Positions 2,600 through 61,273 of a stretch of DNA of 64,000 nt are shown one piece after another. Position numbers and translations under genes: made by a program. Within the stretch, counting starts at the first letter, position 1; the number at the start of each line of letters is the position of its first letter. Source of the stretch: Candidatus Latescibacterota bacterium (GTDB lineage Bacteria; Latescibacterota; UBA2968; GCA-2709665); assembly GCA_963667175.2 (NCBI GenBank), contig CAXXXF010000004.1, forward strand, positions 320,001 through 384,000. Reading direction: 5' to 3'. Below the pieces are notes generated by a model. The model had not been told where the DNA came from and searched no databases. It saw nothing but the letters and a program-made list of their open reading frames with translations.

Positions 2600-4324
2600 A
2601 GACGTTAGAGTCTTACAGTAAGACTTCAACGCAAGATGCGTAGAAGTTTGTTCATGCTGCTTGGATAGCGTTCCGGTTTGTGTGGTTGTCGTATAGTGTC
2701 AGTGAAGTCGCGAGGGTGACGTGTCCGGCCTGTGTGACGCGCCATCTTCTGGACCGAGGTATTTTAGCGATCAGGCCTCGGACGTGTAGACGTTTGAGGA
2801 GTCGGCTGACGGCGTTGGCTTGTCGTCGTCGCTGGTCGAGGGTTCTGGGTTGTTTGAAGAGGTGTTTTCGGATGTCCCGATTGCGGAAGCCCATCAGGGC
2901 GTGTTCGCCTTTCAGGACGGCGGTGAAGAGGTCGAGGTCGCGGGTGTCGGCGGGATTGAAGCCCCGATAGGTCCGCCCCTTGTGCCTGCGTGGTCGGGCA
3001 AGTGCGGCGAGGCTGTGACGGCTCTTCCCGGTGTCTGGTGCTGCTGCCAGCGCCTGAAGATAGTGTTGGTTGGCCTTCAATGAGATCTCCCGATAGCGGT
3101 AGAGGTTGGCCACCCCTTTGGCCATGGGATACCAGCCCATCACGCGTTGTCCTTGCCGTATGCCCTGGCGGCGGACCTTGAACTGCCTTGGATGGTTGAT
3201 CACTGTCTCTATGCGTAGTACGCGCCCGTGTTTGTCGTACATTTTTATCCAGTTCTCACACATCCGGTGTTTGACCCGTGCGCCGGGTTGGCGTTTGTTT
3301 TTGAAGTCCGTGAGGACTTCGCCCTGAAAGTTGCCGTGGAGTTTGCGTCCCAGGAAGGTCAGGATGTCCTGGGGAGAGAAGCACAGCACCGTATGTCTGA
3401 GCAGATTTTCATACAGCACCTTCAGGGCGTGGGGGCTTGTGAACATCACGTCGGTGGCGAACTCAGCCTGGTCAACGACCCAGTAATAGTCCATTCCCGA
3501 AAGCAGGTCTTTGAGCAGGGGGTTGACCCTGCGGGCAAGCCCGGAGAGAATGCGCGGCCAATTTTTCTCGACAAAACGATCGGCAAACCGTTGCGCCCGG
3601 GCCACGTCGTCGATCCATAGAAACGCGTTGTCTGCTTTGCGATAGGCAATGCCGTTTTTATCGAGCTTGCGCGCCAGGTATTCGTGGCCATTGAGACAGA
3701 CCTGCACCACCAGGGGGAACCACGACTGGATGCGGATATGCAGCAACCCGAACTCACGGTCGATATAGTAGAAATAGTAGCACAGGCACTTCCGCCGGGC
3801 GTTGCGCAGGCGAGGCCTTCCTTTCCCTGGAACCAGCTTGAAACTCTGACAGCCCTCCACGGCGCGGTACACACAGACCAGGCCGCGGGTGATCCCATCT
3901 CGTTGGGCGATGCGTCGCGCTTCCTCCTCTTTCCTGACGGTGTTGCGGTCGAGATAGAGGAACGGGCGCTTGTGCCTGCTCGCCATCGCCTCCGCGTGGG
4001 CTTTGATCGTTTTGGAATGCATCGTCACAAAACGCTTGAAGTCCTTCAACAAAAAACCCTGATTACCCATGAAACGCTCCATCGCATCGCCAAATCCCAA
4101 CGGCAGGTACCCCTTGAACAGAACCCGATCAAAACACGATACCACGCCACTGATTTTTTCATTATATTGGTCCACGAAGTCGTTCACGGCGTTCCTCCTT
4201 GGATTGATGGCGGTCGGGACCACCATCATAACGGACGAACGCCGCTTTTCATACCACAAAACAACCTGCCGCTTCAATACCACACTTTTTGGTTGCGGCT
4301 GAGCAAAGCGAAGCCGCCTTAGGG
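2600..4324 (-). mobile_element. Putative insertion element carrying the 2652-4187 ORF (ends approximate)
   Basis: Perfect hairpin AGTCTTAC-A-GTAAGACT at 2609-2625; GCGGCT...AGCCGC hairpin at 4289-4324; abuts the stop of the Kelch gene. Confidence 0.45.
2652..4187 (-). CDS. Putative transposase of an IS-like element (Rep_trans-like core plus C-terminal winged helix)
   Basis: ORF 2652..4283; probable GTG start at 4187 after AGGAGG. Motifs: SCFDRVLFKG, YYFYYIDREFG, LNGHEYLAR, WIKMYDK...LRIETVIN, and C-terminal RLLKRLHVRGLIAKIPRSRRWRVT. Hairpins flank both ends. Confidence 0.6.
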   Translation of the reverse strand: MNDFVDQYNEKISGVVSCFDRVLFKGYLPLGFGDAMERFMGNQGFLLKDFKRFVTMHSKTIKAHAEAMASRHKRPFLYLDRNTVRKEEEARRIAQRDGITRGLVCVYRAVEGCQSFKLVPGKGRPRLRNARRKCLCYYFYYIDREFGLLHIRIQSWFPLVVQVCLNGHEYLARKLDKNGIAYRKADNAFLWIDDVARAQRFADRFVEKNWPRILSGLARRVNPLLKDLLSGMDYYWVVDQAEFATDVMFTSPHALKVLYENLLRHTVLCFSPQDILTFLGRKLHGNFQGEVLTDFKNKRQPGARVKHRMCENWIKMYDKHGRVLRIETVINHPRQFKVRRQGIRQGQRVMGWYPMAKGVANLYRYREISLKANQHYLQALAAAPDTGKSRHSLAALARPRRHKGRTYRGFNPADTRDLDLFTAVLKGEHALMGFRNRDIRKHLFKQPRTLDQRRRQANAVSRLLKRLHVRGLIAKIPRSRRWRVTQAGHVTLATSLTLYDNHTNRNAIQAA

Positions 4325-5403
4325 GCTGTAAATCAGAACCTGATCGGTCGCCTCGAGGTCCTTCAAGCCTCCAGCAATCAGCACGCGGCCGTCGGGAAGC
4401 AACGTTGTCGTGTAAAACGCGCGATTCTCGCCTATGCTGTCTCCGGTCGGGCCGAACGCACCGGTGGCGGGATCGTAGAGGATGACTTCGCCGCTGTTTC
4501 CAATGATAAACACGTCGCCCGATCGCAGTAACGTGGCCGCATGGATCGATTCGAGTCCCGGATCCCCTTCTGATGAGAACATCCCCGTCCCTGGATCGTA
4601 CCGCTCGGCCGCCGTAACCGACACCTCAGACCCCCTCGTCGTCGGTGGTCCCGCCAATGACCAGAACGCTGCCGTCCTGGAGAAGAATTGCCTTTGTGAT
4701 CTCGACGCTCGTATCTCAAGTCGCCTGTGCGCGTAAGCGTATTGGACAATGGGTCGTAGATTTCGCATTCCTGCACCATACCCAAGGCATTGCTGCCGCC
4801 GGCGATGAGTACGCGGCCGTCCCCCAGCCGGGTCGCCGTGTGGCCTCCGCGAATGCGGACCGTACCTGGAAGCGACGCGAAGTCACCAATTGCGGGATCG
4901 AAGAGGGAGACGCCCAGCGAGGTATAGGTGAGGATCTTCCCATTGGCCAGCAGCGTCATCGACGAGATGATCGCGAAGGCGGGCTCATACGGCTCGGGAG
5001 TGATTCGACCGGTTTGCGGATTGTAGAATTCCAGCGGGGCCTGAGCAGCGCCTGCGATCAGGACACGGCCGTCCGGCAGCAGTATTCCCACGTCGAGCGC
5101 GCGAGCCCGGGACATGTCGCCCCTTCTGCTCGAAGTGCCCGTCACGGGATCGAATATTTCCGTGCTGGCGCGAAACAGCGACGAAGGCACGTTACCCGGA
5201 CTGTCCGTGGCTGCGCCGCCCGAGATGAGCACCTTTCCGTCCTGCAACAGCACCGCCGCGTGCCAGAATCGCCTCTCCGTCATCTGACCGGCAACTTCGA
5301 AACCCTTCAGATCGCTCGTGGCTTCCGGGGACGTGGGCACGGGATTGCCGCAGGCCATCAAGAGCAAAATAAAAACCAGCGCGGAACCTGTTTTTCCGGA
5401 CAT
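4319..5403 (-). pseudogene. Kelch-repeat (galactose-oxidase-type beta-propeller) lipoprotein, frameshifted as sequenced
   Basis: Lipobox LLLMAC; repeats R.WH.A.LLQDG.VLI.GG...EIFDP. Removing one base each from the runs at 4693-4695 and 4631-4635 joins ORFs 4432..5403 and 4319..4768 into a full paralog of 31856..32950. Confidence 0.8.
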
Positions 5404-5660
5404 TCGACGTCCTTCCTCAGCGTCGTCAAAAAACAGCGATCAGCGGTCAGCATTCAGCCGTCAGCTTGAAGCAAGAAACCAACCAATTGACGTCGGCGCC
5501 GTGAAGCAGTGGGACAATCACGGGCGCAGACCTCTCCCCCCGGCCTGCCTGCGCCGAGTTCTGCTCGGCAGGCCGGGGGGAGAGGGGGAGAAAACCAGGA
5601 CACCGCGAGGGAATCACAGTTCCCCCTTCCCCCGGGATGGGGACAGGGGGTAGGTAGGCC

Positions 5661-8600
5661 CTATCGCGAGATGACGAAGACCACGTCTTTCTCCGCCGTT
5701 TCGCCGCTGTTCATGTCGTTAATCGATACGTTGAGCGAATATCGCCCCGGGACCTGTTCATCCAGCGCGAGTTCGACGTATTCGTTCTCGCGAGCGGCCG
5801 TGCCCAGCTGCTCGTACGCGACGGCCAGCTCCTCGCGCCTTCCGGTTCCCCAACGGAACAGGCGGGAGATGTTTCCCGCCCCCCCGGCGCGATCTTTCGA
5901 CGTGATGGTGTAGGAGACGTTGTAGCCGGTCTGTCCGAAATCGTCCTTCTCCAGGTTGTAGATCTCGTAATAGACGAACACGCTCTGGCCCTTCCTGTAC
6001 GTTCGGGACGGCATTGGAACAACGTTCAGGCTTCCTTTTGTGAACTTGCTATCCACGTCGTCCGCGCCAACCCGCCAGGCCAGTTCCAGGTCGCTGATCT
6101 GCAGGCGATCTTCTCCGTAGGGTTCCACGACCACCTGCTGCTGATAGATGCCCATTCGTCCTCTCAGGCGGTCCTGCGACTTGACCTCCAGACGGTAGAC
6201 GCCGGGCGGCAGAGCCAGCTTCAGGACGTCCGGCACGATAAGGCCCTCTCCGGCCCGGTTGCCGGCGGTTTCGTAGACCATCTCGTCCGATTGCCGGTAG
6301 ACCGTGTCCAGCGACGACGAAATGAGCGCCGCATGGTGCGTCAGAACCTGCCGAGTGACATCCTCTGCCGCAACGTAATGCGCCGGGACGACGGGGACGC
6401 CGTAGTAGATTTCGAGAAGGCTGTTATCGTCCTCGCCCATGAAGTCGGCCAGCGAGTAGTGGAAATCGAGCGGCTGCGTCTCATGTCTCGGCGTATAGAA
6501 ATCGGGCGTGGCCCGAGCCGCACGCCTGTAGACCGAGTGGGGCGCGTGCCTGCTTAGCGCAGCGGTTTCGCCTATGGATATATCTCCCTGGTTCGGCGGC
6601 ATGGGCGCATAATCGTACGCCCCGGAACCAGTTTCGTCGGTAAATGTGATTTCGATGCCGCCGCCCGCGTCGGTATAGATCCAGGTCTCCCAGGGCACGG
6701 TGCTTCGATCTTCGTCGGTGGTAACCGGGTGATAGTCGCCGAATCCCAGGCTTTCGTCAAGGGGCAAGATGCCGATCTTCAAGGAATCGTCATTGACGAA
6801 GAAAGACTCGCTTCCTCCATCTTGATTGAGGTCGGCGTCGGCCGCCTCCGTACCGTCGTTCGTCATGCCGGCAATCTCACACGCCGATGGATCTGCGTTC
6901 TCTATTGTGAATTCTTTCAGTTCATACCAGGCGCCATCCAGCTGTTTGAGGCTGCGAACGGGATATACCGGGCCGACGAACGTGTGCGCGCGGACGTCGC
7001 CCTTGTAGATATTGAACGCGAGCCGCTCCTTGACCCGCTGTACTTTCAGGCTCTGCTTGAAGTTGGGATCGTCCGATCGGGACCGGTGGTCGGGTTCCCC
7101 GAATCGGACGTAGACGTCCCCCCTGGCGTCCCATGGTTGCCTGCCCTTCGAGAAATCCGTCAACGCGTGCCAGACCCTCCGGTAGTGTTCCAGCAGCCGC
7201 TCGTTCACGGCGGTGGACAGGTCCGGGTCCTTCCCATTCCAGAAACGACTCAAATAGGTCTCGGGATCGTCGGCCTCGCGATACTTCCTGAGTTCTTCGC
7301 TGGAAGCGACCAGCGATATATCTTCGTACAGTCCCCGTACATCCGGCGCAAGTTTGGCAATGTAGTCCTCGAAGAACGCCATGGCCATATCCGACTCTTC
7401 CTGTTCCATGGCGGAAATGGCGACAATGGGCATCAATTCGATGGCTTCGGGGTACTTTCTCACAAAGTCCAGCAGGTGGTTCATAATCTTCGAATAGTCC
7501 CTCACCTTCAGATAGGCAACGCCCAGGCGCCGCTGCGCGTCCGCGTCTTCCGGGCGAAGCGCGAGGTACTTCGTATACCAGACAACGGCCTTTTCGAATT
7601 CCCAGGACAGGTTCAGGTAATAGTCCGCAATCATCAGATAGGCGTCCGCGTGGCCGGGATCCATCTTCAGGACCCGTTTCAGCTCCAGCTCCGCGTCGCG
7701 CTGTTTCATCTCATAACGGACTTTGGCCATCCGGAATCGCGCGTCCACAAAGTCCCGGTCCCTGACCAGCGCCTCTGTAAAGTGGTGAATCGCGAAGTGC
7801 CGCTGCATCGGCCACGTGGCGTAGAGCATTCCCAGGCCGTGGTGGGCAAGCGCTTTGCTTCCCAGGGCCATGGCGCGGTGAAACGCGTCCTTCGATTCCT
7901 CGAACCGCTCGAACGTCAGCAGGATGTGACCCAGCCTGATGTATGCATCGGGACCCTTCGGTTTCTGACGCGCGACGTTCCGATAGATCAGGCGTGCCCT
8001 TTCCAGTTCACCCGCATCCAGCGCCCGGCGACCGATCGCCGAGAGAGAATCCACCTGCTCCGCCGGTAAACGTGACACTCTCGTCCGATTCCCTGCCGGG
8101 CCATTGAGGCCGTAAATGTACTTTCCCCGGTGCCAGAAACAGGCCAGGGCCGGCGCACCGGCCAGCCCCTCGAGGCGATCGTGGTAGTCGCTGAGAAACC
8201 CGCGGCCCGAACTCGCCGGGCAGGAGAACAGGATATTGAGGACCGACATCCTGGCTTTCTCTTCAACCGGGTTCTCAGCATCTTCGGCAATCCTCCGGGC
8301 TGCCCAGCGATGCAGTTCACCAAGGTTCGTCAGTTCTCTGTTCCCGTGGACCCGCCTGAATTTCTGAATCAGACCCAGCATCCCCATCAAGCGCTCCTGA
8401 CAGTGGTGGACGTCGGCCGGGTTCCTTTCGGTCCTGGTCCAGGTCTTGCAGACTTCCTGGTAGATTGCACAGCTTTTTTCTGACAATCCGTACATAGAGG
8501 CCCTGTCAGCGAGTTTCCCGAAGGCGCTCCGCGCGCTCTTGAACCTTTCTTTCGCATTCGCGACGTTTCCTCTGTGAAGCGCGTTCCTGCCCCTGATATA

Positions 8601-9392
8601 CAGATCGAGCCCGATTCCGATCAGGCCCAGGGCGGAATCGATCGTGTCGGCCTCCCGCAGAGCCGCTTCACAATTCGATCCGAAAAAGGCTTCCGAATCT
8701 CTATATATCTTTTTTAATATGTCTCCGGGCGGTTCTGCTGGAACCATCTTCCCGGTTCCCACGTCCACACGGATCCATCCCGATCCATCCGCGGTCCGGC
8801 AGAATACAGCCTTCCCGTCGGGCGACCACGCGACCGGGCCGGTGACGTTGCCTTCGAACAGAAGCCTGACGCCGCCTCGATCGTCCACGGTCCAGAGAAC
8901 CTGTCCGGATCTCGCGAACGGACTGCCCCGATACCCCAAGGCGGCCAGGGACCTGCCGTTGGGCGAGACCCCCATTTCGAGCGGTTGAAAGTCATCGGGC
9001 AGCGGCCACAATTCCTCACCGGCGCCGTCCGCACTCAACCGCCAGATTCTGTTGTTCGAAATCGGAAGCGAATATTCGCCGTAGAAATGCGACCCCCACG
9101 CTTCGCGCCGCAGGCTGCGCTCCAGGTAGACCAGTTCCGTCCCGTCCGGCGCAAAGTGCAGGGCGCCGGGTTCACCGGGATAGGCCCTCAGCTTTTCGGG
9201 TTTATCGTCTTTCGCCGAGACGATCCATATTTCCGTCAGCGAAACCGTCCCTTCGCCGCGTTGGACGGCGTAGGCGACGCGCCCGCCATCCGCCGAACGC
9301 GCGGCGATAACCCCGGCAGGCGCCGACCCGGCCACGCCCGGCATGATCAGGAAGCCGGTGGCGCCGATGAGGAGGATTTTCATCCAATTCAT
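5661..9392 (-). CDS. Large exported TPR + GWxTD-domain protein (PWDxRG subtype) with N-terminal TolB-like propeller segment
   Basis: Signal peptide; SPDG/SPNG propeller repeats; TPRs; FW...DPDLST.VNER.LEHYRRV...PWDARGDVYVRFGEPD; beta-rich C-terminal domain with SDLELA...VFVYYEIYNL. Confidence 0.85.
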   Translation of the reverse strand: MNWMKILLIGATGFLIMPGVAGSAPAGVIAARSADGGRVAYAVQRGEGTVSLTEIWIVSAKDDKPEKLRAYPGEPGALHFAPDGTELVYLERSLRREAWGSHFYGEYSLPISNNRIWRLSADGAGEELWPLPDDFQPLEMGVSPNGRSLAALGYRGSPFARSGQVLWTVDDRGGVRLLFEGNVTGPVAWSPDGKAVFCRTADGSGWIRVDVGTGKMVPAEPPGDILKKIYRDSEAFFGSNCEAALREADTIDSALGLIGIGLDLYIRGRNALHRGNVANAKERFKSARSAFGKLADRASMYGLSEKSCAIYQEVCKTWTRTERNPADVHHCQERLMGMLGLIQKFRRVHGNRELTNLGELHRWAARRIAEDAENPVEEKARMSVLNILFSCPASSGRGFLSDYHDRLEGLAGAPALACFWHRGKYIYGLNGPAGNRTRVSRLPAEQVDSLSAIGRRALDAGELERARLIYRNVARQKPKGPDAYIRLGHILLTFERFEESKDAFHRAMALGSKALAHHGLGMLYATWPMQRHFAIHHFTEALVRDRDFVDARFRMAKVRYEMKQRDAELELKRVLKMDPGHADAYLMIADYYLNLSWEFEKAVVWYTKYLALRPEDADAQRRLGVAYLKVRDYSKIMNHLLDFVRKYPEAIELMPIVAISAMEQEESDMAMAFFEDYIAKLAPDVRGLYEDISLVASSEELRKYREADDPETYLSRFWNGKDPDLSTAVNERLLEHYRRVWHALTDFSKGRQPWDARGDVYVRFGEPDHRSRSDDPNFKQSLKVQRVKERLAFNIYKGDVRAHTFVGPVYPVRSLKQLDGAWYELKEFTIENADPSACEIAGMTNDGTEAADADLNQDGGSESFFVNDDSLKIGILPLDESLGFGDYHPVTTDEDRSTVPWETWIYTDAGGGIEITFTDETGSGAYDYAPMPPNQGDISIGETAALSRHAPHSVYRRAARATPDFYTPRHETQPLDFHYSLADFMGEDDNSLLEIYYGVPVVPAHYVAAEDVTRQVLTHHAALISSSLDTVYRQSDEMVYETAGNRAGEGLIVPDVLKLALPPGVYRLEVKSQDRLRGRMGIYQQQVVVEPYGEDRLQISDLELAWRVGADDVDSKFTKGSLNVVPMPSRTYRKGQSVFVYYEIYNLEKDDFGQTGYNVSYTITSKDRAGGAGNISRLFRWGTGRREELAVAYEQLGTAARENEYVELALDEQVPGRYSLNVSINDMNSGETAEKDVVFVISR

Positions 9393-14335: not shown

Positions 14336-14427
14336 TCACTCAATCACGCGGAACAACACACCGCGCGACACCACCTCATCGCTATGCACATCTCTAATCC
14401 GCACCGACAGGCGATGCACACCGGCAG
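14336..14427 (-). pseudogene. Orphan C-terminal remnant of a GWxTD gene
   Basis: Translates as AGVHRLSVRIRDVHSDEVVSRGVLFRVIE*, nearly the C-terminus of 42065..44488. Confidence 0.8.
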
Positions 14428-14535
14428 CGATGGGCCGACCAATTGGGATCCCATCCGGTGACCTCGCCAGATGCCGCGGCGACACGCTGAATGGAGCAGG
14501 CTGTTCCGTTGCGTTAAAATGCCAGATTCAATGGT

Positions 14536-16980: not shown

Positions 16981-17080
16981 GCAGAGGCCCTTCTGAGCGA
17001 AGGAGAACGCGAGACGCAGCATCGCGGATAAGAGTGGAAGACCTGGGTCAATGAACGCACACGGGCTCTTCATTCGCCAA

Positions 17081-17189
17081 CCCGTCCTTCCCAAAAGACA
17101 CGGGCCAGGCGCCATGGGTTCAAAAAAAGCCCGGACACCCTGTCTTCCGGACTCGTTTCGCGCCTGGGCGATGAACTCTGGGTAACCGG
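17081..17189 (-). promoter_or_regulatory. Conserved block-start element, copy 1: intrinsic terminator followed by an ECF-sigma-like promoter
   Basis: Minus strand GAGTCCGGA-loop-TCCGGGC-T7, then GAACCC-N17-TCT. Four copies, each upstream of a GWxTD gene. Confidence 0.6.
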
Positions 17190-17239
17190 GGGTTATGTCA
17201 CGTCGTTGCGCAACATCGTTCCTGCTCCCTGGCGAGCGT

Positions 17240-44876: not shown

Positions 44877-45045
44877 TGCCTGCGCCCTTTCCATTCGATT
44901 CAATCACACGGAACAACGCATCAGGCGCGGCCACGCCGGTGGGGGGTCCTGAACGCCTTCACGACCCTACCGCAAGAATGCCCGGCCCCGAGCCAATCCC
45001 TGACTTTAAATGAATCTCAATTCTTCAGGTGAACGGGCGACGCCG

Positions 45046-50743: not shown

Positions 50744-51778
50744 TTATCGATGCTCCATCACCACACGAAACCCGGTGAAAGCGTCCGGCACCCACCCGAA
50801 CGAACGGGCAGCCGCCCGAATCCACGCGGGGCGATCAAAACTCGATCCTCCTCTCACAACGCGGCTGCCATCCAGAGCGCGTCCTCCAGCGGGTCCGTCG
50901 GGCCCTTTGGGATCGACCTGCGGCTCATCCGAATACGGACCGTAGTAATCCTGCACGAGTTCACGTACATTTCCGTGCATATCATATAGGCCCCACGGGT
51001 TCGGAAAAACGCCCCCTGTTTCCTGCACCTCCGGAGGTCCAAAGACTCTTCGCCCGTCGTCCAGAATGGTGGCTCTGCGTGAGTTCCCGAAATATCGCGC
51101 GTAATCGGCGATGCGGGTCGTGTCGTTTCCGAACGACCAGGGTGTCTTGGTGCCTGCCCTGCAGGCGTATTCCCACTCCGCCTCCGTGGGCAACCGGAAA
51201 ATATCCGATCCTTCGGCCTCGTTCAATTCACGTATGAATGTCTCGATTTCGCGCCAGCGCATTCTATTTGCCGGAAAGTTCCCTCTCCCGGGAACCTGAG
51301 AAACCACTCCCATAAGCCACGGACGCGTATTCATCACGCTCTCCCACTGCGACTGCGTGACTTCGTGCTTGCCCATGTAGAATCCCGTTGTAATCGTGAC
51401 TCCATGCCGGGGACCCTCGTGATCGTCTCGGTCGGGCTCAGAATCCGGCGACCCCATCAGGAAGCGTCCTGGCTGGATCCAGACCATATCCAGCTTTGCG
51501 CCTCTCGGAAGCGTCACCGTAATCTTCTCTTCCGGCGCACCCTCTCCGAACCGCTGTGCAAACAGGATGAAATCCGGAAAACCCACGCTTCCATTGCCGT
51601 CAAGGTCGAAAAGGTGTTGATTCGATCCGAAAGCCTGCGCGAACAGGATGAAGTCACCGAAATCCACGATTCCGTTGGCGTCGAAATCAGCGTCGCGGGT
51701 GGATTGGGCGAGCGGGGCTTGCCAAACAATCAGCAATGCGCTCAGGGCAAGTATTACAAGAACGGTATTTCGTCTCAT
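50744..51778 (-). CDS. Exported dockerin-like + FGE-sulfatase-fold protein 5
   Basis: Same architecture and motifs as protein 1. Confidence 0.9.
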   Translation of the reverse strand: MRRNTVLVILALSALLIVWQAPLAQSTRDADFDANGIVDFGDFILFAQAFGSNQHLFDLDGNGSVGFPDFILFAQRFGEGAPEEKITVTLPRGAKLDMVWIQPGRFLMGSPDSEPDRDDHEGPRHGVTITTGFYMGKHEVTQSQWESVMNTRPWLMGVVSQVPGRGNFPANRMRWREIETFIRELNEAEGSDIFRLPTEAEWEYACRAGTKTPWSFGNDTTRIADYARYFGNSRRATILDDGRRVFGPPEVQETGGVFPNPWGLYDMHGNVRELVQDYYGPYSDEPQVDPKGPDGPAGGRALDGSRVVRGGSSFDRPAWIRAAARSFGWVPDAFTGFRVVMEHR

Positions 51779-55100: not shown

Positions 55101-57927
55101 AACAATTCTTTCGCATTGTCTTCGTTTCCTCTGTGGAGGGCATTTCTGCCGCGTATGTACAGGTTCAGGCCGGAACTGATTAAACGTAGGGGGATATCTG
55201 ACGAATCGGACTGACGCAAAGCGTCTGTGGACCTCGCCCTGGACAGGGATTCTCGATCTTGTCTTCCGTTCGCAGGAATTCCTTCCTTCGGAATGTAGGG
55301 AACAGTTTCGCCCGTCTCTACGTGAACACGGATCGCCTCCCCCTCGTCCTTGACACCGCATGAAACAGTTTTTCCATCATCTGACCAATCTACAGGCCCA
55401 CTTACGTTACCGGCAAACAAAAGCCTGATGTCTCCCCGTCTGTCGACTGTCCAGAGGCCGTGGCTTGTGCGCTCGAAAGCATTGCGTCGATAACCGATAA
55501 TCGCCAATGACCGTCCATCAGGAGAAAGCGCGAATTGGAGAGGTTGAAGATCCGTAGGAAGCGGCCACGCTTCCTCTTTGGTACCGTCCGGATACAACGA
55601 CCATATTATGTTTTTCGTGATCGGTATCGAGTGGCCTCCATAGAAATACGACCCCCACGCTTCGTGTCGCAAGCTTCGTTCCAGATATATCAAGGCATCG
55701 CCAGCCGGATCAAAATAGAGGTCGCCTGGTCTTCCGGGATAAGTCTTGATCCTCCTGGGTTGTGTGTCCAAAATCGAGACAATCCAGATTTCAGTGACAG
55801 AAATCGCACCCTTGCCCCTCTGGATTGCAAAAGCTCGATCCCCGGCCACTGACGTTACAGGTAGAGTCGAGAGGTGGCGCGGTGGTGTAGGAGAGGCCTA
55901 TCTGTTTCCGCCCCTTTCGTCTGGCGGTGCCTCAATAGCCGCTCCGCGCTCCGTTTCCACGTCCCGCTCATCGAACCGGACGTGCGGATTTACCGCATCC
56001 GGCTCTCGGACAAGGAGTCATGCGTTCGCCCACGGAAGGTTGTGCGTCTGCACCTCCAGCCGGGTCAGGCCCAACGTATTGTAGAGGACCTCGTCAGGGA
56101 GACGGGACGTCCCCTTTCCCGGTATTCGGTACTTGTTGCACAACCACCAGCGGAGCCGTTGCCGGGTGTGGCTGTCCACACTCCGGTAGGCTTTGCTGAC
56201 CGGACCAAGACGGAAGTAGTTGCCCCACCCTGTTAGCTTTCGGTTCAGGTGGGCAATCCGTTCTTGATGGTCTTTCAGCAGCCACCGCCGCGCCGTTGCC
56301 TCGCTGATGGCCCGGCAGATGTGCCGGATGGCCTTCTTTGACGGGCGCGTGCCGATATAGGCCTTTCCCGTCTTTGGTGAGTAACAGCGTTCGATGGTGT
56401 AGCCCAGAAAGTCAAATCGTCCTTCAGGAAGCGTGCATATGCCCGTCTTCTGCTCGTTCACCGTCAACTTGAGCGCCTTCATAATGGATCGCATCGCGCG
56501 CATCGCTTCTTTTGCGGTGCCGCGACAGCAGATCACAAAATCGTCCGCGTAGTTGACAATATGAGCCTTCAGGCGTTGCTGATGTCCCCGAACCTGCCAT
56601 CCCAGAATGAACCGCCGCATATACAGGTTCGCCAGCAGGGGCGAGATCGGGGCGCCTTGCGGTGTCCCCCTTCCCTGATCCTTGTTCGGCGTCGTTCGAC
56701 GTTTGCGGCCCCGCTTGTCGGTCTCCTCAATCGGCGCGGTCAGCCACAGCTTGACCAGGCCCAGCATACGCCCGTCACTGATGCGACGCGCCACACATTT
56801 CATCAGCTCGGCATGCGGGATCGTGTCAAAGTAACCGCTCAAGTCCGCGTCGATCACCTGCGTATGGCCACGGCTCACCAGACTGTGAACCGCCCTGATG
56901 GCGTCGTGCGCACTCCGTTTCGGACGGTACGCATACTGCGCCGCTGGCAGGTCCGCCTCAAAGATCGGCTCCAATACCAGCATCGCCGCGGTTTGCACCA
57001 CCCGATCTTTCACCGTCGGGATGCCCAGCGGCCTTTGCTTCCCGTTCGGCTTGGGGATATACACCCGACGGATCGGAGACACCCGATACGATTTGCTCCT
57101 TACGGCTTCCGACAGTTCGCCTAACCACCGCTTTTGCCCATATGACTCGATATCCGCAAACGTCTCGCCGTCCACGCCCGCCGCGCCGCCGTTGGCCTTG
57201 CAGCAGCGGTACGCATAAAGCAGGATGTCCTCGCGATACACCTTGTCATACAGCGCGTAGAATCGGTAGCCGGGCGATTCCTTCGCTTTGGCATGCAACG
57301 TCCTCTGCAACTTCCGAACCTTTTCCGGAGGTCTTAGGCTCATACCAATCTCCAGGCTCTCGCTCCTTTGACGTTGCCCTTGAACCAAGGCCCCTTTCCT
57401 CCGCCGGCATTACCCGGCTTCTCAGGTACTACGGGCCTCTCCGCCACCCCACGCGGCCCGGCCTGACCCTCACGGGCTGCCGGTTGGTGTCTCCACCACC
57501 GCCTGGGGCTTCCCGTGTTGCGTCGGAACTCCTTGTATACGTGCCTCCGCCACTACCCCGGCGGGACCGTTGGGTGCTCGCGTTGCCTGCTTCCCCAACG
57601 ACGGCGGCCTTCCCCGAAATTCAGGCGGGTCGGCTCCCGCATTACCCTTTTCGAGGCCTGCGCAGCGTTCACTCACGTTTCGGCCCGCATACTCGCCAAG
57701 TCGCCTTGCGACCCTCTACACCGGAGGCTTCGGAGATGTCGTTTCCTACGTCCCCGCTCCGATTGCTACCGACTGTGGCAACACTTGTCGGGTGGGACTC
57801 TCACCCACTGAAGTTCCGCGCCTTTTCACGGCGCACTGAGATAATCAGGGTCAGACGCTTCGACAACACGGGGGGTTGCCAGGATGCAGAATGCAATTAC
57901 GAGTGTAACCCGTATGTTCCACCGCAT
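52181..57927 (-). CDS. Large exported TPR + GWxTD-domain protein (PWDxRG subtype), split by a group II intron: exon 1 57837-57927, exon 2 52181-55860
   Basis: Removing 55861-57836 gives in-frame MRWNIRVTLVIAFCILATPRVVEASDPDYL-T-VTSVAGDRAFAIQRGKG, with a GGAGG RBS. PWDTRGDVYIRFGEPD; close paralog of 5661..9392. Confidence 0.88.
55861..57836 (-). mobile_element. Group II intron, copy 2 (IIB-like), intragenic
   Basis: GTGCG 5' end at 57836, domain V, CTCGACTCTAC 3' end at 55861; highly similar to copy 1. Confidence 0.93.
56018..57343 (-). CDS. ltrA: Group II intron reverse transcriptase/maturase
   Basis: Near-identical to 19177..20502; YADDFVI and GTPQGAPISP motifs. Confidence 0.93.
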   Translation of the reverse strand: MSLRPPEKVRKLQRTLHAKAKESPGYRFYALYDKVYREDILLYAYRCCKANGGAAGVDGETFADIESYGQKRWLGELSEAVRSKSYRVSPIRRVYIPKPNGKQRPLGIPTVKDRVVQTAAMLVLEPIFEADLPAAQYAYRPKRSAHDAIRAVHSLVSRGHTQVIDADLSGYFDTIPHAELMKCVARRISDGRMLGLVKLWLTAPIEETDKRGRKRRTTPNKDQGRGTPQGAPISPLLANLYMRRFILGWQVRGHQQRLKAHIVNYADDFVICCRGTAKEAMRAMRSIMKALKLTVNEQKTGICTLPEGRFDFLGYTIERCYSPKTGKAYIGTRPSKKAIRHICRAISEATARRWLLKDHQERIAHLNRKLTGWGNYFRLGPVSKAYRSVDSHTRQRLRWWLCNKYRIPGKGTSRLPDEVLYNTLGLTRLEVQTHNLPWANA

Positions 57928-57996
57928 GACGTTGCCCTCCTGCCATTCAACAATGCAGTTCGGACTTTAATTATCCTGAACCGGAAGTCGAGTTTG

Positions 57997-58774
57997 CATT
58001 GGTACCCCAACCCACAATAGAGCTACGCGTCCTTGTCCTCGGGAAACTGATCCAGGCATCGCTTTGAGGCCAATACCAACCCCCTCGGATTCTTGCTCTC
58101 ATAGTGAATCAGTCCCAAGTCGTAATGCGCATCTCGATTTTCAGGATCGACCTCGGTGCCTTTTATCAGGAATGCCAGTGCTTTATCTCTATCCCGCGTT
58201 CCGTGTTGTTCCCAGCGAAAAAGGCGGTACATTGGTGGCCCTACTCCACCTGCGACGATTCCTACAGGCTCCATCTCGAAATACTTCAGGAAAGCCTGCA
58301 CGGAAAAAATCCAACCAGGTACGCTGCTTGGGCGCGTTGTTCCGGAAAGTTCTCGTAAATCTTCTCATAATGCCGTTCGGCACTTAGCCAGAGCCCCTGC
58401 TTGCCGAGCAACTCACCGAGCGCCATCTGATAATCACCACTTCTCGGCTCCAGCCGAATCGCCTCATCCAGCGCATTTCGTGCACTCTGGCGATCCATGG
58501 GCGTGTCAAGCGACATATACAGCTTCGCGATCTCGTAGTGGGCCGGCGCGAAGTCCCGGTCCGCCTTCAATACGTCATGGAAGGCCTCTATACTTGCCTC
58601 AGCGCTGACACTTCCGACCTGCTCTAGAGCTGACTCGTAAATCGTATCGGCGATTTGCTTCGGCGTGCCTTCGAGTGGTGAAATGACAGAGAGTCCGAAG
58701 CAAAAAAGCACAACTCCATATGAAGTAAACCTCCTACACCATCTTTGGATGTGACGAAATTTTCGAAATGTCAT
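57997..58774 (-). pseudogene. Truncated GWxTD/TPR gene (N-terminal part only)
   Basis: Paralog of the 58808 N-terminus. Frameshift in the A6 run at 58304-58309; TTG>TAG stop at 58023; homology ends after LYCGLGYQ. Confidence 0.85.
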
Positions 58775-58807: not shown

Positions 58808-61123
58808 TCACTCAATCACGCGGAACAACGCATCCCGCGACGCTTCCTGACCGGTATGCATATCCGTCAGACGCACCGATAGGCGGTGCACACCCGCAGG
58901 CACGTGGCTCAGGTCAATCTGCAGATACGTGAAGTCATCCTCCCGGTCCCCCTCGTACTGAGAGGTAATTGTCGTTTGGGTGCCTTGTGTATCCTTTTCC
59001 ATTTCTTTCATCAGCAGGGCGATTTCGTCTTCGCGATCTCCCATTCCCTCGCTCACGTGCAGCACCTCATATTTGTGGTTCCGCGTCACAATCACGTCTG
59101 GCGTCCTCGTTGGCTTGCCATTGCCTGGCAGCCGCTGCGCTGTAAACAAGTAAGGATCGATCCTTTCCTCGCCTGGACGGCCGATCCGATAAGAAATCTC
59201 ATACTCCGTGCGTCCATACCTGTCACGCCTCAGGTTATATAGTTCCAGATAGATGAACGCTGGCTCCGACCGATGGTAGGTCCGTAAGGGATTCGCAACA
59301 ACATTCAGATCATCCCTGTCTTCCGGAAACGGCGACTGTGTTGCGATTTGCGTGGCCAGCAGCAGATCACTCATTGCGAGCGTAGAATCCGCCATCTCGA
59401 ACGTGCGCTGCTCTCGAAACGTCCCGATCGACCCACTTTCTGCGTCCCTCACCTCGCAAATCAGATTGTACGTGCCCGGGGCCAACGTGAATGCTTTCTG
59501 AAACACCAGATGGTTTTCCCGCAAGCTGTCCACAACGGGATACCCGCTATCCGTCAACTCGGGCCACCTCAGATCCAGAGCCGACCGCTTTCTAAAGACA
59601 GCATCCCATCGCTCGTCAAAAAGGAAGATCCCGTTCTCCAGAACCATACTATCCGCTACCGACGCGGACACGTTGTACTTCGGCAGCGCATACGCCAATT
59701 CTACGCGGAGGCTATTTCCATCCTTGAAGCCAACCACCTGATAGGGAATTCTATATTTGTGATGTCGATAGGGGTCCAGAACGTGGGGTGGTTGACGATT
59801 GAAGATATATCGACTCGAAATCCGGCCTGGACGAGTATCGAAACGCCATGAATCCAGACCGTCGCTGTTGAAAAACGAAATTGAAAAACCATCATAATAC
59901 CACTCTTCATTCCCACCCTGAACGACTCTACTAATGCCGGTGCTCGCTCCATCGACACCGCCTGGCAACTCCATACGCGTTGCCGTTTTGTTGAGATACC
60001 TCCCGAATTTGATATGGGCCTTGCCACGGTCGGTTTGCCATCCCTGTATCCCCTTCAGCCGCTGCCCGTATCTGAGATTGGCATACGCCACCCGTCCATA
60101 GTGCTCCATGCGTCGCTCGCTGAATGCTGTCAGGTAAAGGGGATCGCGTTTCCGCCAGAACCGCACCCGCTCACGGCTATCCGTCCATCCGTTTTGGGTC
60201 GCATCGGTCGTCGCAATTGAATCAAGCGCCGATAGTTCCTTCTGGCTTGCAATTACGTCCACCGACTCCATCAGAGCGCGTTCCTGTGCCGACATTCGCT
60301 CCAACGCGCCCAAATAATAGTCGTGGGCAGTTTCCAATTCACCCATCCTCTGGTATCCCAGACCACAGTAAAGCAACGCGTCCTTATCCTCGGGAAATTG
60401 ATCCAGGCACAGCTTTGATGCCGTTACCAGTCCATTGGGATTCTGGCTTTCGTAATGGATCAGTCCCAAATCATAGTACGCTTGTCGATATCCGGGATCG
60501 GTCTCGATGCTCCTGATCAGAAATGCAAGTGCTTTCTCACGGTCGTGTGCGCCGTATTTTTCCCAACGAAACAGGTGATATGTAGGTGGCCCGCCGCCAG
60601 TAATAATATCTATGTGCTCCATATCGATATACTTCAAAAACGCCTGCAGGGAAAAAAAACCTACCATATACGCTGCCTCGGCAAACCTTTCGGGATGGGT
60701 CTCACATACCTTTTCGTAATGCCTCTCGGCATTCAACCAGAGCCCCTGCTTGCCGAGCAACTCACCGAGCAACAGTTGATAATTCCCGTTGCCCGGTTCC
60801 AGTAGAATCGCCTCGTCCAGCGCCTTGCGCGCACTCTGGCGATCCATGGGCGTATCCATAGACATATACAGCTTCGCGATTTCATAATGGGCCGGTGCGT
60901 GGTCCGGATCCGCATTCAATACCTCACGGAAAGCCCCCAGGCTCTGCTCGACGGTGACATTTCCGACTTGCTCCAGAGCTTTCTCGAAGAGCCTGTCTGC
61001 AGCCTGCTTCTCACCGGCCGCAATCGGCGACGCGAGACAGAATCCGAGCCACAGTACCGCTAACACGAAGGAACTCAATCCCGCGCGGCAAATTCGCGTT
61101 TGACGAATTATCAGGGATGGCAT
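58808..61123 (-). CDS. Exported TPR + GWxTD-domain protein (GWxTDxG subtype)
   Basis: Signal peptide, TPRs, GWQTDRGKAHIKFG. Confidence 0.9.
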   Translation of the reverse strand: MPSLIIRQTRICRAGLSSFVLAVLWLGFCLASPIAAGEKQAADRLFEKALEQVGNVTVEQSLGAFREVLNADPDHAPAHYEIAKLYMSMDTPMDRQSARKALDEAILLEPGNGNYQLLLGELLGKQGLWLNAERHYEKVCETHPERFAEAAYMVGFFSLQAFLKYIDMEHIDIITGGGPPTYHLFRWEKYGAHDREKALAFLIRSIETDPGYRQAYYDLGLIHYESQNPNGLVTASKLCLDQFPEDKDALLYCGLGYQRMGELETAHDYYLGALERMSAQERALMESVDVIASQKELSALDSIATTDATQNGWTDSRERVRFWRKRDPLYLTAFSERRMEHYGRVAYANLRYGQRLKGIQGWQTDRGKAHIKFGRYLNKTATRMELPGGVDGASTGISRVVQGGNEEWYYDGFSISFFNSDGLDSWRFDTRPGRISSRYIFNRQPPHVLDPYRHHKYRIPYQVVGFKDGNSLRVELAYALPKYNVSASVADSMVLENGIFLFDERWDAVFRKRSALDLRWPELTDSGYPVVDSLRENHLVFQKAFTLAPGTYNLICEVRDAESGSIGTFREQRTFEMADSTLAMSDLLLATQIATQSPFPEDRDDLNVVANPLRTYHRSEPAFIYLELYNLRRDRYGRTEYEISYRIGRPGEERIDPYLFTAQRLPGNGKPTRTPDVIVTRNHKYEVLHVSEGMGDREDEIALLMKEMEKDTQGTQTTITSQYEGDREDDFTYLQIDLSHVPAGVHRLSVRLTDMHTGQEASRDALFRVIE

Positions 61124-61177
61124 TGCAAGACCTCTTATTCACGCGTCGGGAACAATTCACTGTGCCAATTTCCGAAG

Positions 61178-61273
61178 CCCGTCCTACCGAGAAGACACGG
61201 CCCGCGCGCCATGGGTTCAAAAAAACAAAAGAAAAGAGCCCGGATCGTGCTTCTTCCGGGCTCCAATTGCGCC
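61178..61273 (-). promoter_or_regulatory. Conserved block-start element, copy 4
   Basis: GAGCCCGGA-loop-TCCGGGCTC with a long T-rich tail, then GAACCC-N17-TCT. Confidence 0.55.

Follow-up and report, generated by a model that had tools for sequence, protein, structure and literature searches.

A repeated array of GWxTD, Kelch and FGE-like genes in Candidatus Latescibacterota as a candidate modular binding apparatus of the outer membrane

Introduction

What does a bacterium gain from ten diverged copies of an exported repeat protein, and do the lipoproteins and lectin-like proteins encoded beside them act in the same structure? The question is raised by a 64,000-nt window, the whole stretch of DNA analysed here, from Candidatus Latescibacterota (assembly GCA_963667175.2, contig CAXXXF010000004.1, positions 320,001-384,000). 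About 60 kb of this window consist of repeated operons encoding exported TPR/GWxTD proteins, Kelch lipoproteins and lectin-like proteins with a docking tag. A full-text literature search for the term "GWxTD" returned no match. Coordinates below are positions in the window.

Results

Four co-oriented blocks

All array genes share the minus strand and fall into four blocks. Read 5' to 3', block 1 contains a short GWxTD gene, a GWxTD pseudogene, a PWDxRG-type gene, three FGE-like genes, a PWDxRG-type mini-copy and a Kelch gene, and block 2 two GWxTD genes, two FGE-like genes, a PWDxRG-type gene, a Kelch gene and a permease gene. Block 3 consists of two GWxTD genes, an insertion hotspot and a Fic gene, and block 4 of a PWDxRG-type gene, a Kelch gene, two more PWDxRG-type genes and a second Kelch gene. 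This order and orientation agree with a first-pass annotation of the DNA, which had placed the array at 4319-61273; the array does lie there, but the conserved neighbourhood runs further left, to 628. The paralogues are 40-74% identical across the array and predate species splits, and all array families are under purifying selection (dN/dS 0.16-0.47, 10 pairs). Segmental duplication is evident from 3'-end remnants of short genes at block heads, the pseudogene and the mini-copy. The new element here is the multiplication of the GWxTD genes together with their fixed partners.

GWxTD genes and their fragments

The GWxTD genes and fragments are as follows.
58808-61123, minus: short TPR+GWxTD gene, 771 aa, TIGR04514 51.4 bits
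42065-44539, minus: short TPR+GWxTD gene, likely start 44488
39639-42047, minus: short TPR+GWxTD gene, 802 aa
26224-28671, minus: short TPR+GWxTD gene, likely start 28656
23798-26170, minus: short TPR+GWxTD gene, 790 aa, used for the structure model
57837-57927, minus: long PWDxRG-type gene, exon 1 (start codon and signal peptide)
52181-55860, minus: exon 2 of a long PWDxRG-type gene
32963-36793, minus: long PWDxRG-type gene, 1276 aa
9659-13069, minus: long PWDxRG-type gene, likely start 12964
5661-9392, minus: long PWDxRG-type gene, 1243 aa
14536-17115 (listed ORF; start taken at 16980), minus: 859-aa-type PWDxRG gene
46633-47670, minus: long-type mini-copy, 345 aa
57996-58753, minus: pseudogene, 5' third of a short GWxTD gene
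14339-14431, minus: remnant, last 31 codons of a short GWxTD gene
44900-44915, minus: remnant of a short-gene 3' end, before cis element copy 2

Five of the ten full-length genes are of a short type (771-824 aa) with a true GWxTD motif, four are of a long type (1136-1276 aa) with a PWDxRG motif, and one is an 859-aa form, whose start we took at 16980 because the listed ORF start overlaps a cis element. NCBIfam TIGR04514 scores all ten at 42-61 bits, above its 28-bit cut-off, while Pfam PF20094 is weaker, with E<=0.01 in 8/10 and the gathering score passed by one. The annotated inventory of ten full-length genes, a mini-copy and a pseudogene is thus borne out. The mini-copy joins ~170 N-terminal residues of the long type in frame to ~190 C-terminal ones and is 67-77% identical to the gene at 32963-36793; the pseudogene spans residues ~10-275 of a short gene, with a single frameshift near 58305. 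Of three tail remnants annotated, two are clear, at 14339-14431, where relatives carry an intact short gene, and at 44900-44915; the other two block heads hold degenerate traces only, so the number three is approximate.

The structure model of the short protein (pLDDT 88, pTM 0.86) predicts a TPR superhelix, a helical/small-sheet GWxTD unit and two beta-sandwiches. To this architecture the long form adds an N-terminal propeller-like and helical region, with a PD40/TolB-like N-terminal stretch. Foldseek searches with the model returned generic TPR and tandem beta-sandwich matches only (TM 0.12-0.32 for the C-terminal half), and these uninformative matches therefore give no functional clue to the GWxTD domain. 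A database search with the short protein found 14291 matches at E<=1e-3; both the domain and the complete short architecture occur widely among bacteria, and look-alikes in the Atlas belong to Gemmatimonadota, WOR-3 and Acidobacteriota. None of the ten window GWxTD C-termini matched a T9SS C-terminal sorting domain.

Kelch lipoproteins follow GWxTD-family genes

Four Kelch lipoprotein genes are present.
45046-46143, minus: Kelch beta-propeller lipoprotein, 365 aa, intact
31856-32950, minus: Kelch lipoprotein, 364 aa, intact
13233-14322, minus: Kelch lipoprotein gene, one frameshift needed near 14100
4319-5403, minus: Kelch lipoprotein gene, one frameshift needed (ORFs 4432-5403 and 4319-4768)

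The annotated number of four therefore stands, with the qualification that two need a frameshift. Unless assembly indels account for this, it would be unexpected in obligate partners. All four proteins show an L-x-[GA]-C lipobox, judged by eye. The earlier rule that each Kelch gene follows a PWDxRG-type gene holds in the window, where for example only 12 nt separate the stop of the long gene at 32963-36793 from the start of the Kelch gene at 31856-32950, but among relatives 6 of 31 follow a short GWxTD gene. Directly upstream of 29 of these 31 distinct high-scoring Kelch genes lies a GWxTD-family gene. The GWxTD-to-Kelch order is kept among orthologues that are ~50% identical, with tight or overlapping junctions. 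At least 7858 proteins were found in the Kelch database search.

FGE-like proteins combine a constant module with variable patches

Blocks 1 and 2 encode five FGE-like proteins.
50744-51778, minus: FGE-like protein with dockerin-like module, 344 aa
49231-50262, minus: FGE-like protein with dockerin-like module, 343 aa
47785-48831, minus: FGE-like protein with dockerin-like module, start probably 48831 and not 49041
38249-39283, minus: FGE-like protein with dockerin-like module
36858-37904, minus: FGE-like protein with dockerin-like module

Annotated as dockerin-FGE proteins, all five carry an FGE-sulfatase domain (PF03781, 125-133 bits), while the dockerin assignment is below threshold (Dockerin_1 20.1 and 14.9 bits vs a cut-off of 22.9; dockerin_GC 27.9 bits vs 29). 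The closest solved relatives are PvdO, FGE, PorK and a T. denticola variable protein. Each protein has one cysteine, and none lies within the C-terminal RGGS region; the catalytic cysteine pair of FGE, at the positions we take it to occupy, has no counterpart. In public records, relatives bear the name "SUMF1/EgtB/PvdO family nonheme iron enzyme"; this label denotes the family and does not stand for a demonstrated function. The database search found at least 7977 such proteins.

Although the paralogues differ by 26-38% overall, the dockerin-like module is near-invariant (entropy 0.04-0.56 bits), pointing to a common partner, and two surface patches are variable (residues 151-180 and 291-335, entropy 1.3-1.7 bits). 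In a quick maximum-likelihood tree, each of the five window paralogues groups in a pair with its orthologue in a different genome (SH-aLRT 99-100), and dN/dS is 0.16-0.22. Judged by these sequences, the paralogues are old, separately maintained lineages. The suggestion that they serve as variable binding subunits gains support from the constant module, the variable patches and these old lineages. A Pfam search of the array proteins at E<=0.01 detected no cohesin.

One cis element heads every block

A 125-nt cis element occurs in exactly four copies in the window, one at each block head as annotated, against none expected (100 shuffles).
61167-61308, minus: copy 1, head of block 1
44757-44886, minus: copy 2
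28703-28832, minus: copy 3
17070-17199, minus: copy 4

The element consists of an A-tract, a GC hairpin (folding at -16 to -24 kcal/mol), a T-run and then TTGAAC-N16/17-GTGTCTT, the hairpin resembling an intrinsic terminator. Seven more distinct sites lie at heads of GWxTD genes in 5 of 23 assemblies, and other genomes keep the cassette at the heads of their orthologous blocks. All 11 aligned copies have TTGAAC and GTGTCTT unchanged, with a variable spacer; by comparison with consensus motifs, the two are putative promoter boxes. A sigma-70 scan gave no match, and no sigma factor gene was seen. The cassette may combine an intrinsic terminator with a promoter that a single alternative (ECF-like) sigma factor would recognise, in which case the blocks would form a regulon.

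Insertions, permease and X529

The remaining features include mobile elements.
55861-57836, minus: group II intron copy B (RT/maturase ORF 56018-57388)
19020-20998, minus: group II intron copy A
21859-23199, plus: IS110 transposase
17383-18969, minus: Fic/PDC-S24 gene
29277-31688, minus: MacB/ADOP-like duplicated FtsX permease, 803 aa (MacB_PCD and two FtsX)
628-2217, minus: X529, a 529-aa exported protein, conserved after the Kelch gene in relatives

What had been called a hotspot (17383-23199) resolves into the IS110 element, intron copy A and the Fic/PDC-S24 gene, and lies outside the array proper. Intron copy B interrupts a long GWxTD gene, and splicing would restore a 1256-aa ORF with a signal peptide and a start at 57927. 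The window's two reverse transcriptases are both maturases of group II introns (TIGR04416, 360 bits vs a 300-bit cut-off), and Rfam group II intron domains flank both.

The annotated ABC permease is present at 29277-31688 with no adjacent ATPase gene; with 255 bits from the ADOP model, whose cut-off is 622, it counts as no more than ADOP-like. X529 has a C-terminal FnIII domain and ~400 N-terminal residues without a family match. A weak (alpha/alpha)6 glycosidase-like lead for it scores 0.84, short of the tool's threshold of 0.9. Both X529 and the paralogue set are confined to one clade.

Neighbourhoods in related genomes

We compared 57 loci from 23 Latescibacterota assemblies; all were picked for a GWxTD gene within one phylum, so the adjacency counts are ascertainment-biased and phylogenetically non-independent. 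In 12/23 assemblies, complete chromosomes among them, a Kelch gene comes directly after a GWxTD-family gene, and in 13/23 a dockerin-like FGE gene adjoins one, so the three families are neighbours elsewhere too.

Deeper relatives carry a trio encoding a SusC/RagA-like TonB-linked protein, a ~800-aa protein and a PorV/PorQ-family barrel (152 bits vs a 90-bit cut-off), directly followed by a GWxTD gene. The GWxTD-family gene follows the PorV/PorQ gene in all nine loci holding downstream DNA, and the ~800-aa gene precedes it in all nine holding upstream DNA; weak CTD-like C-termini occur in 6/9 of the ~800-aa proteins. The SusC/RagA-like N-terminus scores 66-73 bits (SusC model cut-off 368). Sulfatase, heparinase II/III-like and S15 peptidase genes also lie in these loci. 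The 64-kb window holds no SusC-like, PorV-like or TonB gene, and the outer-membrane barrel link rests on other loci in other genomes. The periplasmic or surface location proposed at first pass fits three observations: signal peptides and lipoboxes can be made out by eye, the domains are of types found in exported proteins, and PorV/PorQ and SusC-like genes neighbour GWxTD genes in deeper relatives.

Discussion

We tentatively favour, at somewhat under even confidence, a lineage-specific expansion of exported envelope proteins in operon-like blocks, which would form an outer-membrane-associated modular binding apparatus under one promoter type. The products, proposed at first pass to form one complex with GWxTD scaffolds, may gather at the outer membrane as a binding or capture layer, in which GWxTD proteins would serve as adaptors linked to barrels of the PorV/PorQ type, with Kelch lipoproteins as their partners anchored in the membrane. 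The FGE-like proteins could then act as exchangeable ligand-binding heads, docked via the constant module and differing in the variable patches. Glycans or other macromolecules would be the likely ligands, given the sulfatase, heparinase-like and peptidase genes next to the deeper loci and X529 with its weak glycosidase-like lead.

A serious if rather unlikely alternative is that these are independent exported proteins, such as solute or polymer binders or non-FGE enzymes, co-regulated and duplicated together without forming a complex; adjacency would then reflect only tandem duplication and shared regulation. The signs of segmental duplication, the very large families that also occur without each other (14291 GWxTD, at least 7977 FGE-like and at least 7858 Kelch proteins) and the failure of Pfam to detect a cohesin fit this account, but the conserved GWxTD-to-Kelch order with its tight junctions and the near-invariant module of diverged paralogues speak against it. 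It is improbable that the array encodes biogenesis or maintenance factors acting like BAM, Tol-Pal or Lol and multiplied for robustness. The PD40/TolB-like stretch and the MacB/LolC-type permease adjoining a lipoprotein gene would suit such a role, as would TPR matches to PilW, LapB, BcsC, YbgF and Tgl, but these matches are far under the cut-offs and confined to generic TPRs. Housekeeping machines, moreover, do not normally come as ten diverging paralogues with variable lectin-like partners, and the set with X529 is restricted to one clade.

Kelch and TPR are classic host-mimic repeats, and the array might encode eukaryotic-like proteins by which a symbiont manipulates its host. According to a passage in PMC12993501, the TPR class predominates among the eukaryotic-like proteins of Latescibacterota MAGs associated with sponges. 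We nevertheless consider this quite improbable: the GWxTD domain and short architecture are widespread in bacteria, the Kelch proteins with their lipoboxes look more like residents of the envelope than like injected effectors, neither secretion-system genes nor T9SS sorting domains (0/10) were found, and deeper loci link the family with barrels of the outer membrane. Diversity-generating retroelements are known to target the FGE/C-type-lectin fold; the T. denticola variable protein among the PDB matches, the clustering of FGE-like variation near the C-terminus and the two window reverse transcriptases would suit such targeting. Both enzymes, however, are intron maturases, a search outside genes found no template-repeat copy of the FGE 3' end, and the paralogues have stable orthologues under low dN/dS, which largely refutes this very unlikely explanation. 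To an assembly artefact from collapsed or chimeric repeats we give almost no credence. Many paralogous repeats and two frameshifted Kelch genes, possibly indel errors, could suggest one, but identical block orders recur in 12 independent assemblies, including complete chromosomes and chromosome-level MAGs, and paralogues 40-74% identical are too diverged for collapse.

Comparison with known systems

The candidate binding apparatus resembles several known systems in part. Like the Sus-like polysaccharide utilisation loci of Bacteroidota, which pair SusC/SusD with surface glycan-binding lipoproteins, it combines exported helical TPR-type and tandem beta-sandwich proteins with lipoproteins in many diverging paralogous sets, and the deeper loci share the SusC/RagA-like N-terminus and the sulfatase and heparinase-like genes. 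Since SusC and SusD genes are both absent from the window, the SusC model scores far under its cut-off in the deeper loci and no glycoside hydrolase was confidently identified, the likeness is one of functional analogy only and the array is not a Sus member. In relation to T9SS PorV/PorQ/PorP, the order of CTD-like ~800-aa protein, PorV/PorQ barrel and GWxTD gene in relatives recalls cargo/barrel pairs, and the FGE-like proteins have the PorK/GldK fold; however, the GWxTD proteins lack the T9SS C-terminal domain, the GldK/PorK models score 70-81 bits vs a cut-off of 350, and core T9SS genes are absent from the window. As in cellulosomes, several paralogous heads share a duplicated Ca-binding docking-type module whose conservation far exceeds that of the remainder, but here the dockerin match is sub-threshold, no cohesin appears at the Pfam threshold used, the bacterium is a diderm and non-catalytic proteins of the lectin fold, not glycosidases, form the heads.

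Within the FGE/PvdO/DGR variable-protein superfamily (PF03781), the array domain is clear and PvdO and FGE are its best PDB relatives, but the two active-site cysteines of FGE are missing and the single cysteine lies elsewhere. The permease shares the MacB periplasmic core, the duplicated FtsX and the lack of an ATPase neighbour with acidobacterial duplicated orphan permeases (ADOP). From the GWxTD family itself (TIGR04514/PF20094), the array differs in that PWDxRG replaces GWxTD in half of the copies and four copies bear a ~470-aa N-terminal extension; the domain is nevertheless shared by 10/10 genes and mostly follows TPRs, which is the usual architecture of that family.

Gene content of the array

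The window has a G+C content of 53-62%, and almost every long ORF lies on the minus strand. Candidate proteins were scanned with Pfam (31 proteins) and NCBIfam (27 proteins) and compared by all-against-all BLASTP. The gene inventory and gene order drawn up in the first-pass annotation were borne out by these scans and by BLASTP. Ten large genes encode TPRs followed by a GWxTD domain and form two sequence groups, five short and five PWDxRG-type. All ten match TIGR04514 in the NCBIfam scan with 42.2-60.8 bits, above the curated cut-off of 28 bits. PF20094 matches eight of the ten at E<=0.01, and its gathering score of 26.9 is passed only by gene 5661-9392 (27.3 bits).

Genes and gene remnants in the four minus-strand blocks
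Short GWxTD genes, n=5: 771-824 aa, true GWxTD motif, mutual identity 40-70% (BLASTP)
Long PWDxRG-type genes, n=4: 1136-1276 aa, N-terminal extension of ~470 aa
Remaining PWDxRG-type gene (859-type, 14536-17115), n=1: 859 aa
46633-47670: mini-copy, in frame, without a TIGR04514 match in the NCBIfam scan
57996-58753: 5' pseudogene
14339-14431 and 44900-44915: two clear 3'-end remnants
Kelch genes with lipobox, n=4
FGE-sulfatase-domain genes, n=5: mutual identity 62-74%
MacB/ADOP-like permease gene, n=1

The ORF start of the 859-type gene (17115) falls within the cis element at its block head, and thus the true start is probably 16980. Alignment shows that an internal deletion has removed both the TPR region and the GWxTD region from the mini-copy. 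It arose recently from the long gene 32963-36793; over its C-terminal part, dS between the two is 0.24. The Kelch gene 3' of the mini-copy shares only 43% identity with Kelch gene 31856-32950, which adjoins the long gene, and therefore the mini-copy and its Kelch gene were not duplicated as a pair. This history suggests a gene conversion or replacement event.

All four Kelch genes or gene halves score 44-85 bits against Kelch_6 (Pfam cut-off 25.3), and in all four N-termini, read by eye, the signal peptide ends in an L-x-[GAS]-C lipobox. Kelch genes 13233-14322 and 4319-5403 each carry a single frameshift in an otherwise conserved frame, and may be young pseudogenes or contain assembly indels. 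The permease matches TIGR03434 (ADOP) over its full length with 254.9 bits, below the 622-bit cut-off, while MacB_PCD and FtsX are both over their Pfam cut-offs.

Structure and spread of the GWxTD proteins

To our knowledge, the GWxTD domain has no assigned function, and a search of 8.4 million full texts found no mention of the term "GWxTD". The structure of a short GWxTD protein was modelled from a 105-sequence alignment (pLDDT 88, pTM 0.86). In the model, a TPR superhelix extends up to about residue 290 and is followed by a helical unit with a small sheet, bearing the invariant W/D/P/T/E/R/H/R residues; further on, a disordered loop leads into two C-terminal beta-sandwich domains. Foldseek searches of the full model against the PDB returned generic TPR proteins. 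For the C-terminal half, of which a separate model was made (pLDDT 71), the matches were RbmA, transglutaminase barrels and arrestins, at TM-scores of 0.12-0.32 only, and neither model yielded a PDB analogue of the GWxTD unit. In the ESM Atlas, the GWxTD half matched only GWxTD or unnamed clusters. The short GWxTD architecture is widespread: a search with one such protein matched 14291 representative clusters at E<=1e-3, and 202 when the limit was set to E<=1e-30.

FGE-like proteins combine a dockerin-like module with a lectin-type fold

All five FGE-like proteins contain a PF03781 FGE-sulfatase domain (125-133 bits). Among solved structures, they are closest to PvdO (2e-19), followed by FGEs, PorK and a variable protein of T. 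denticola. Each mature protein has one cysteine, located in EWEYACRAGT; the last 130 residues and the C-terminal RGGS segment are free of cysteine. In FGE, the catalytic cysteine pair lies in a C-terminal GGS...C....C segment, which the PDB alignments do not reach. As they lack such a pair, the FGE-like proteins are not true formylglycine-generating enzymes.

The dockerin-like module is N-terminal, duplicated and of the Ca-binding type. Its matches to Dockerin_1 (PF00404; 20.1 and 14.9 bits, cut-off 22.9) and dockerin_GC (27.9 bits, cut-off 29) are sub-threshold, and the precomputed annotation of a homologue at 45% identity (P0270) includes PF00404. Across 28 paralogues and orthologues, column entropy is 0.04-0.56 bits in the dockerin-like module and 1.3-1.7 bits at residues 151-180 and 291-335. 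At the level of sequence, the FGE-like proteins are a constant anchor with variable patches.

A shared cis element heads each block

A 30-nt cis core occurs exactly four times in the window, once at each block head, against 0 occurrences expected from 100 shuffles. Searching for the exact pattern in loci fetched from related genomes gave no match. A profile built from the four ~125-nt copies gave eight plus-strand matches in eight related loci, upstream of orthologous GWxTD genes; because two of these loci overlap at one genomic site, the matches represent seven distinct sites in five assemblies. In the resulting 11-copy alignment, the invariant parts are a GC hairpin between an A-tract and a T-run, a TTGAAC box and, after a variable spacer of 16-17 nt, a GTGTCTT box.

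The hairpins have folding energies of -16 to -24 kcal/mol. In RNAalifold, covariation among the 11 copies contributed -0.26 kcal/mol and only three pairs had changed on both sides, and Rfam at the gathering threshold matched only group II intron domains in the window, none at the cis element. The negligible covariation and the absent Rfam match speak against a structured RNA, and on these grounds we read the element as a probable terminator followed by a putative promoter. A sigma-54 promoter is rejected, as its TGGCGC box varies among orthologous copies, and scanning the surroundings of copy 2 for the sigma-70 consensus gave no promoter. The boxes of the cis element appear closer to those of ECF-type promoters (GAAC...GTCT) than to a sigma-70 -10 box.

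Blocks recur in related genomes and are maintained

A family-alignment scan of species-representative genomes identified 57 loci in 23 assemblies, which belong to Candidatus Latescibacterota or to MAGs labelled Gemmatimonadota or "uncultured", with a best match of 85% identity. HMMs of the window families, applied to the stop-to-stop ORFs in the 57 loci, revealed three recurring blocks: short, short, three to five FGE-like genes, long, Kelch; 859-type, short, Kelch, long, long, Kelch, X529, four to five Kelch genes; and long, Kelch, long, permease, 859-type. A GWxTD-family gene is directly followed by a Kelch gene in 12 of the 23 assemblies and adjoined by an FGE-like gene in 13. The association of GWxTD, Kelch and FGE genes noted in the first-pass annotation, together with the block types themselves, is found again outside the window. 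Between the stop of the long GWxTD gene and the Kelch start lie 12 nt in the window; in relatives, the two ORFs overlap.

The neighbours of the individual genes were counted as well; these counts, like those per assembly, are biased and non-independent, because each locus was selected for its GWxTD gene and the genomes belong to related organisms. Upstream of 31 distinct high-scoring Kelch genes lies a long gene in 21 cases, a short gene in six, an 859-type gene in two, and a Kelch gene and the locus end in one each. For 33 lower-scoring Kelch genes, the upstream neighbour is another Kelch gene (18), a long gene (4), X529 (4) or nothing recognised (7). Downstream of 72 distinct long-type genes we found Kelch (25), FGE-like (14), long (7), short (3) and permease (3) genes, nothing recognised (19) and the locus end (1).

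The dN/dS values of ten orthologue or paralogue pairs are 0.16-0.47. In a quick maximum-likelihood tree of 29 FGE-like proteins, all five window paralogues pair with copies from other genomes (SH-aLRT 99-100) and not with one another. Thus, the paralogue sets are old and have been kept under purifying selection.

The conserved neighbourhood extends leftward to the gene of X529, a 529-aa exported protein (628-2217, minus strand) with 32 relatives only. An FnIII domain at its C-terminus is the sole match of a PDB profile search with X529 homologues, and its N-terminal ~400 residues contain many invariant aromatic and acidic residues. The ESM Atlas scores X529 at 0.84 to GH76-type (alpha/alpha)6 enzymes, under the tool's line of 0.9, and kinship with (alpha/alpha)6 glycosidases is a weak lead.

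Introns, insertions and flanks

Two group II introns, 94% identical to each other, match RF02003 and RF00029 and encode an RT/maturase (TIGR04416, 360 bits).

Group II introns of the window
19020-20998, minus strand: intron A, upstream of the Fic gene in an AT-rich intergenic stretch
55861-57836, minus strand: intron B, in a long GWxTD gene directly after the signal-peptide codons

Splicing 57927-57837 to 55860-52181 gives an uninterrupted ORF of 1256 aa with the signal peptide restored, and residues 1-1255 of the product align with the paralogue 5661-9392 at 64% identity. Since the spliced ORF is uninterrupted and aligns end to end, this long gene is intron-split rather than truncated. Bacterial group II introns that split a protein-coding gene are rare. 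The 5' flanks of the two introns are alike over ~13 nt, and similar 5' flanks are expected for group II intron target sites.

The first-pass annotation had placed a "hotspot" and a Fic gene within the array; the Fic gene was confirmed, and the hotspot resolved into an IS110 transposase, intron A and the Fic gene itself. The Fic protein (17383-18969, minus strand, 528 aa) matches the candidate defence family PDC-S24 of PADLOC with 610 bits and SoFic with 79 bits, and none of the 57 related loci contains a homologue. At the right flank lies a Gabija pair on the minus strand, comprising GajB (PADLOC 802 bits) and the C-terminus of a GajA that leaves the window (61805-63766 and 63681-63998).

A 543-aa ORF (2652-4283, minus strand) lies between a Kelch gene and the X529 gene and matches no Pfam, NCBIfam or PADLOC family; it is probably an insertion, because Kelch and X529 adjoin in relatives. 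The left edge encodes an XRE-type HTH protein (1-429, minus strand; HTH_3, 37 bits). As relatives hold four to five further Kelch genes there, it seems that the array either ends at this edge or is interrupted there. Two intergenic repeat pairs, 28927-29280/50501-50695 and 2233-2535/5524-5628, have translated identities of 51% and 72% and show themselves as similar spurious ORFs.

Distant loci carry another gene order

In distant Latescibacterota loci, the partners seen in the window fade and another gene order appears: a SusC/RagA-like gene with CarboxypepD_reg and Plug domains, a gene of ~800 aa, a PorV/PorQ-family barrel gene and a PWDxRG-type GWxTD gene of ~820 aa, often followed by a long gene.

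Loci with the conserved trio of SusC-like, ~800-aa and PorV/PorQ genes
L027, L028, L049, L050, L051, L052-L055

The barrel matches NF033709 with 152 bits (cut-off 90). The ~800-aa protein matched no family over its length, and CHU_C/Por_Secre_tail matches at its C-terminus are weak (six of nine, 15-17 bits, cut-off 27). In all nine loci with downstream DNA, the next gene after the PorV-like one belongs to the GWxTD family; four more loci, which end within the barrel gene, are left out of this count. The gap between the two genes is 4-486 nt in eight loci and 1457 nt in one. As far as gene adjacency goes, the GWxTD family is tied to outer-membrane barrels.

L031 shares its genome with L001, the closest relative of the window. 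In L031 and its orthologues, about a dozen loci, the gene after the long one encodes a dockerin-like FGE-like protein, and a sulfatase gene lies two genes further. Directly upstream of the long gene, about a dozen orthologous loci among L031-L047 (e.g. L031:6644-8614) encode a class-III aminotransferase and a DUF6785/DUF6784 membrane protein; an S15 peptidase and a sulfatase are encoded downstream.

Discussion

We rate the array as a candidate modular envelope or surface protein apparatus. Our leading reading is that the blocks may form a regulon whose exported products would build a modular binding layer, either at the outer membrane or beneath it. The GWxTD proteins would act as adaptors of this layer, the Kelch lipoproteins as their anchored partners and the dockerin-like lectin-fold proteins as exchangeable heads. 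This model starts from the gene content and its conservation, the purifying selection, the constant and variable parts of the FGE-like proteins and the common cis cassette; the localisation and mutual contacts of the proteins, their ligands and the sigma factor are those that the model predicts.

The same genes could also encode co-duplicated and co-regulated exported proteins that are physically independent of one another, which is the main rival and in our judgement somewhat improbable. Envelope-biogenesis factors are unlikely, and host-directed "eukaryotic-like" repeat proteins are slightly less probable again; TPR proteins are abundant in sponge-associated Latescibacterota, according to a published account (PMC12993501). 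A diversity-generating retroelement (DGR) acting on the FGE-like genes is very improbable: such an element needs a DGR-type RT and a template repeat, whereas both RTs found in the window are group II intron maturases and no spare copy of an FGE 3' end is present in it. An assembly artefact can practically be dismissed, as the block types recur in related assemblies and the paralogue sets are old and kept.

Returning to the binding-layer model, it is tempting to speculate further that the GWxTD proteins are adaptors of a hitherto undescribed docking apparatus in the outer membrane of the FCB group, with a barrel base, a scaffold, heads and a regulon under one sigma factor, although we regard this extended version as rather unlikely. 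Here, a PorV/PorQ-type barrel and a SusC-like transporter would form the membrane base, and TPR-GWxTD proteins with their Kelch lipoprotein partners the scaffold. Lectin-fold heads without the FGE catalytic cysteines would plug in via the constant dockerin-like module, and the Latescibacterota clade represented by the window would have multiplied scaffold and head genes into a ~60-kb regulon with one dedicated sigma factor.

The array and its relatives represent the first reproducible genetic context for the GWxTD domain, consisting of a Kelch lipoprotein, dockerin-like lectin-fold proteins, a MacB-like permease and a common regulatory cassette and, in deeper loci, of a PorV/PorQ barrel and a SusC-like protein. 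With this context, a domain without an assigned function yields pairings that can be tested in an uncultured phylum. If modular docking is true, diderm bacteria would have a new means of making a variable binding surface. If docking is wrong, the array still provides a clear case of long-maintained paralogue sets under purifying selection, plus a rare intron-split gene.

The array genes are members of the GWxTD, Kelch and PF03781 families. Our literature searches for this gene set (Latescibacteria with dockerin, sulfatase, TPR, Kelch/FGE or T9SS; FGE with dockerin) found no report. The array resembles polysaccharide utilisation loci (PULs), barrel-linked surface proteins of the type IX secretion system (T9SS) and cellulosomes in logic only. 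A Sus-like PUL has adjacent SusC and SusD genes, whereas the window scans found neither, and sub-cut-off SusC-like N-termini occur only in distant loci. T9SS cargo carries a C-terminal sorting domain, whereas none of the ten GWxTD C-termini of the window matches Por_Secre_tail or CHU_C at E<=1; the ~800-aa gene and PorV/PorQ barrel of the deeper loci recall T9SS cargo/barrel pairs. By score, the array permease fails as an ADOP. A cellulosome is built on a cohesin scaffold, whereas Pfam cohesin families match none of the 31 scanned window proteins at E<=0.01 and cohesin is absent from the best 50 Foldseek matches of the beta-sandwich half of the GWxTD protein. If the docking apparatus exists as proposed, it would be a diderm counterpart of the cellulosome and PUL principle, made from unrelated parts.
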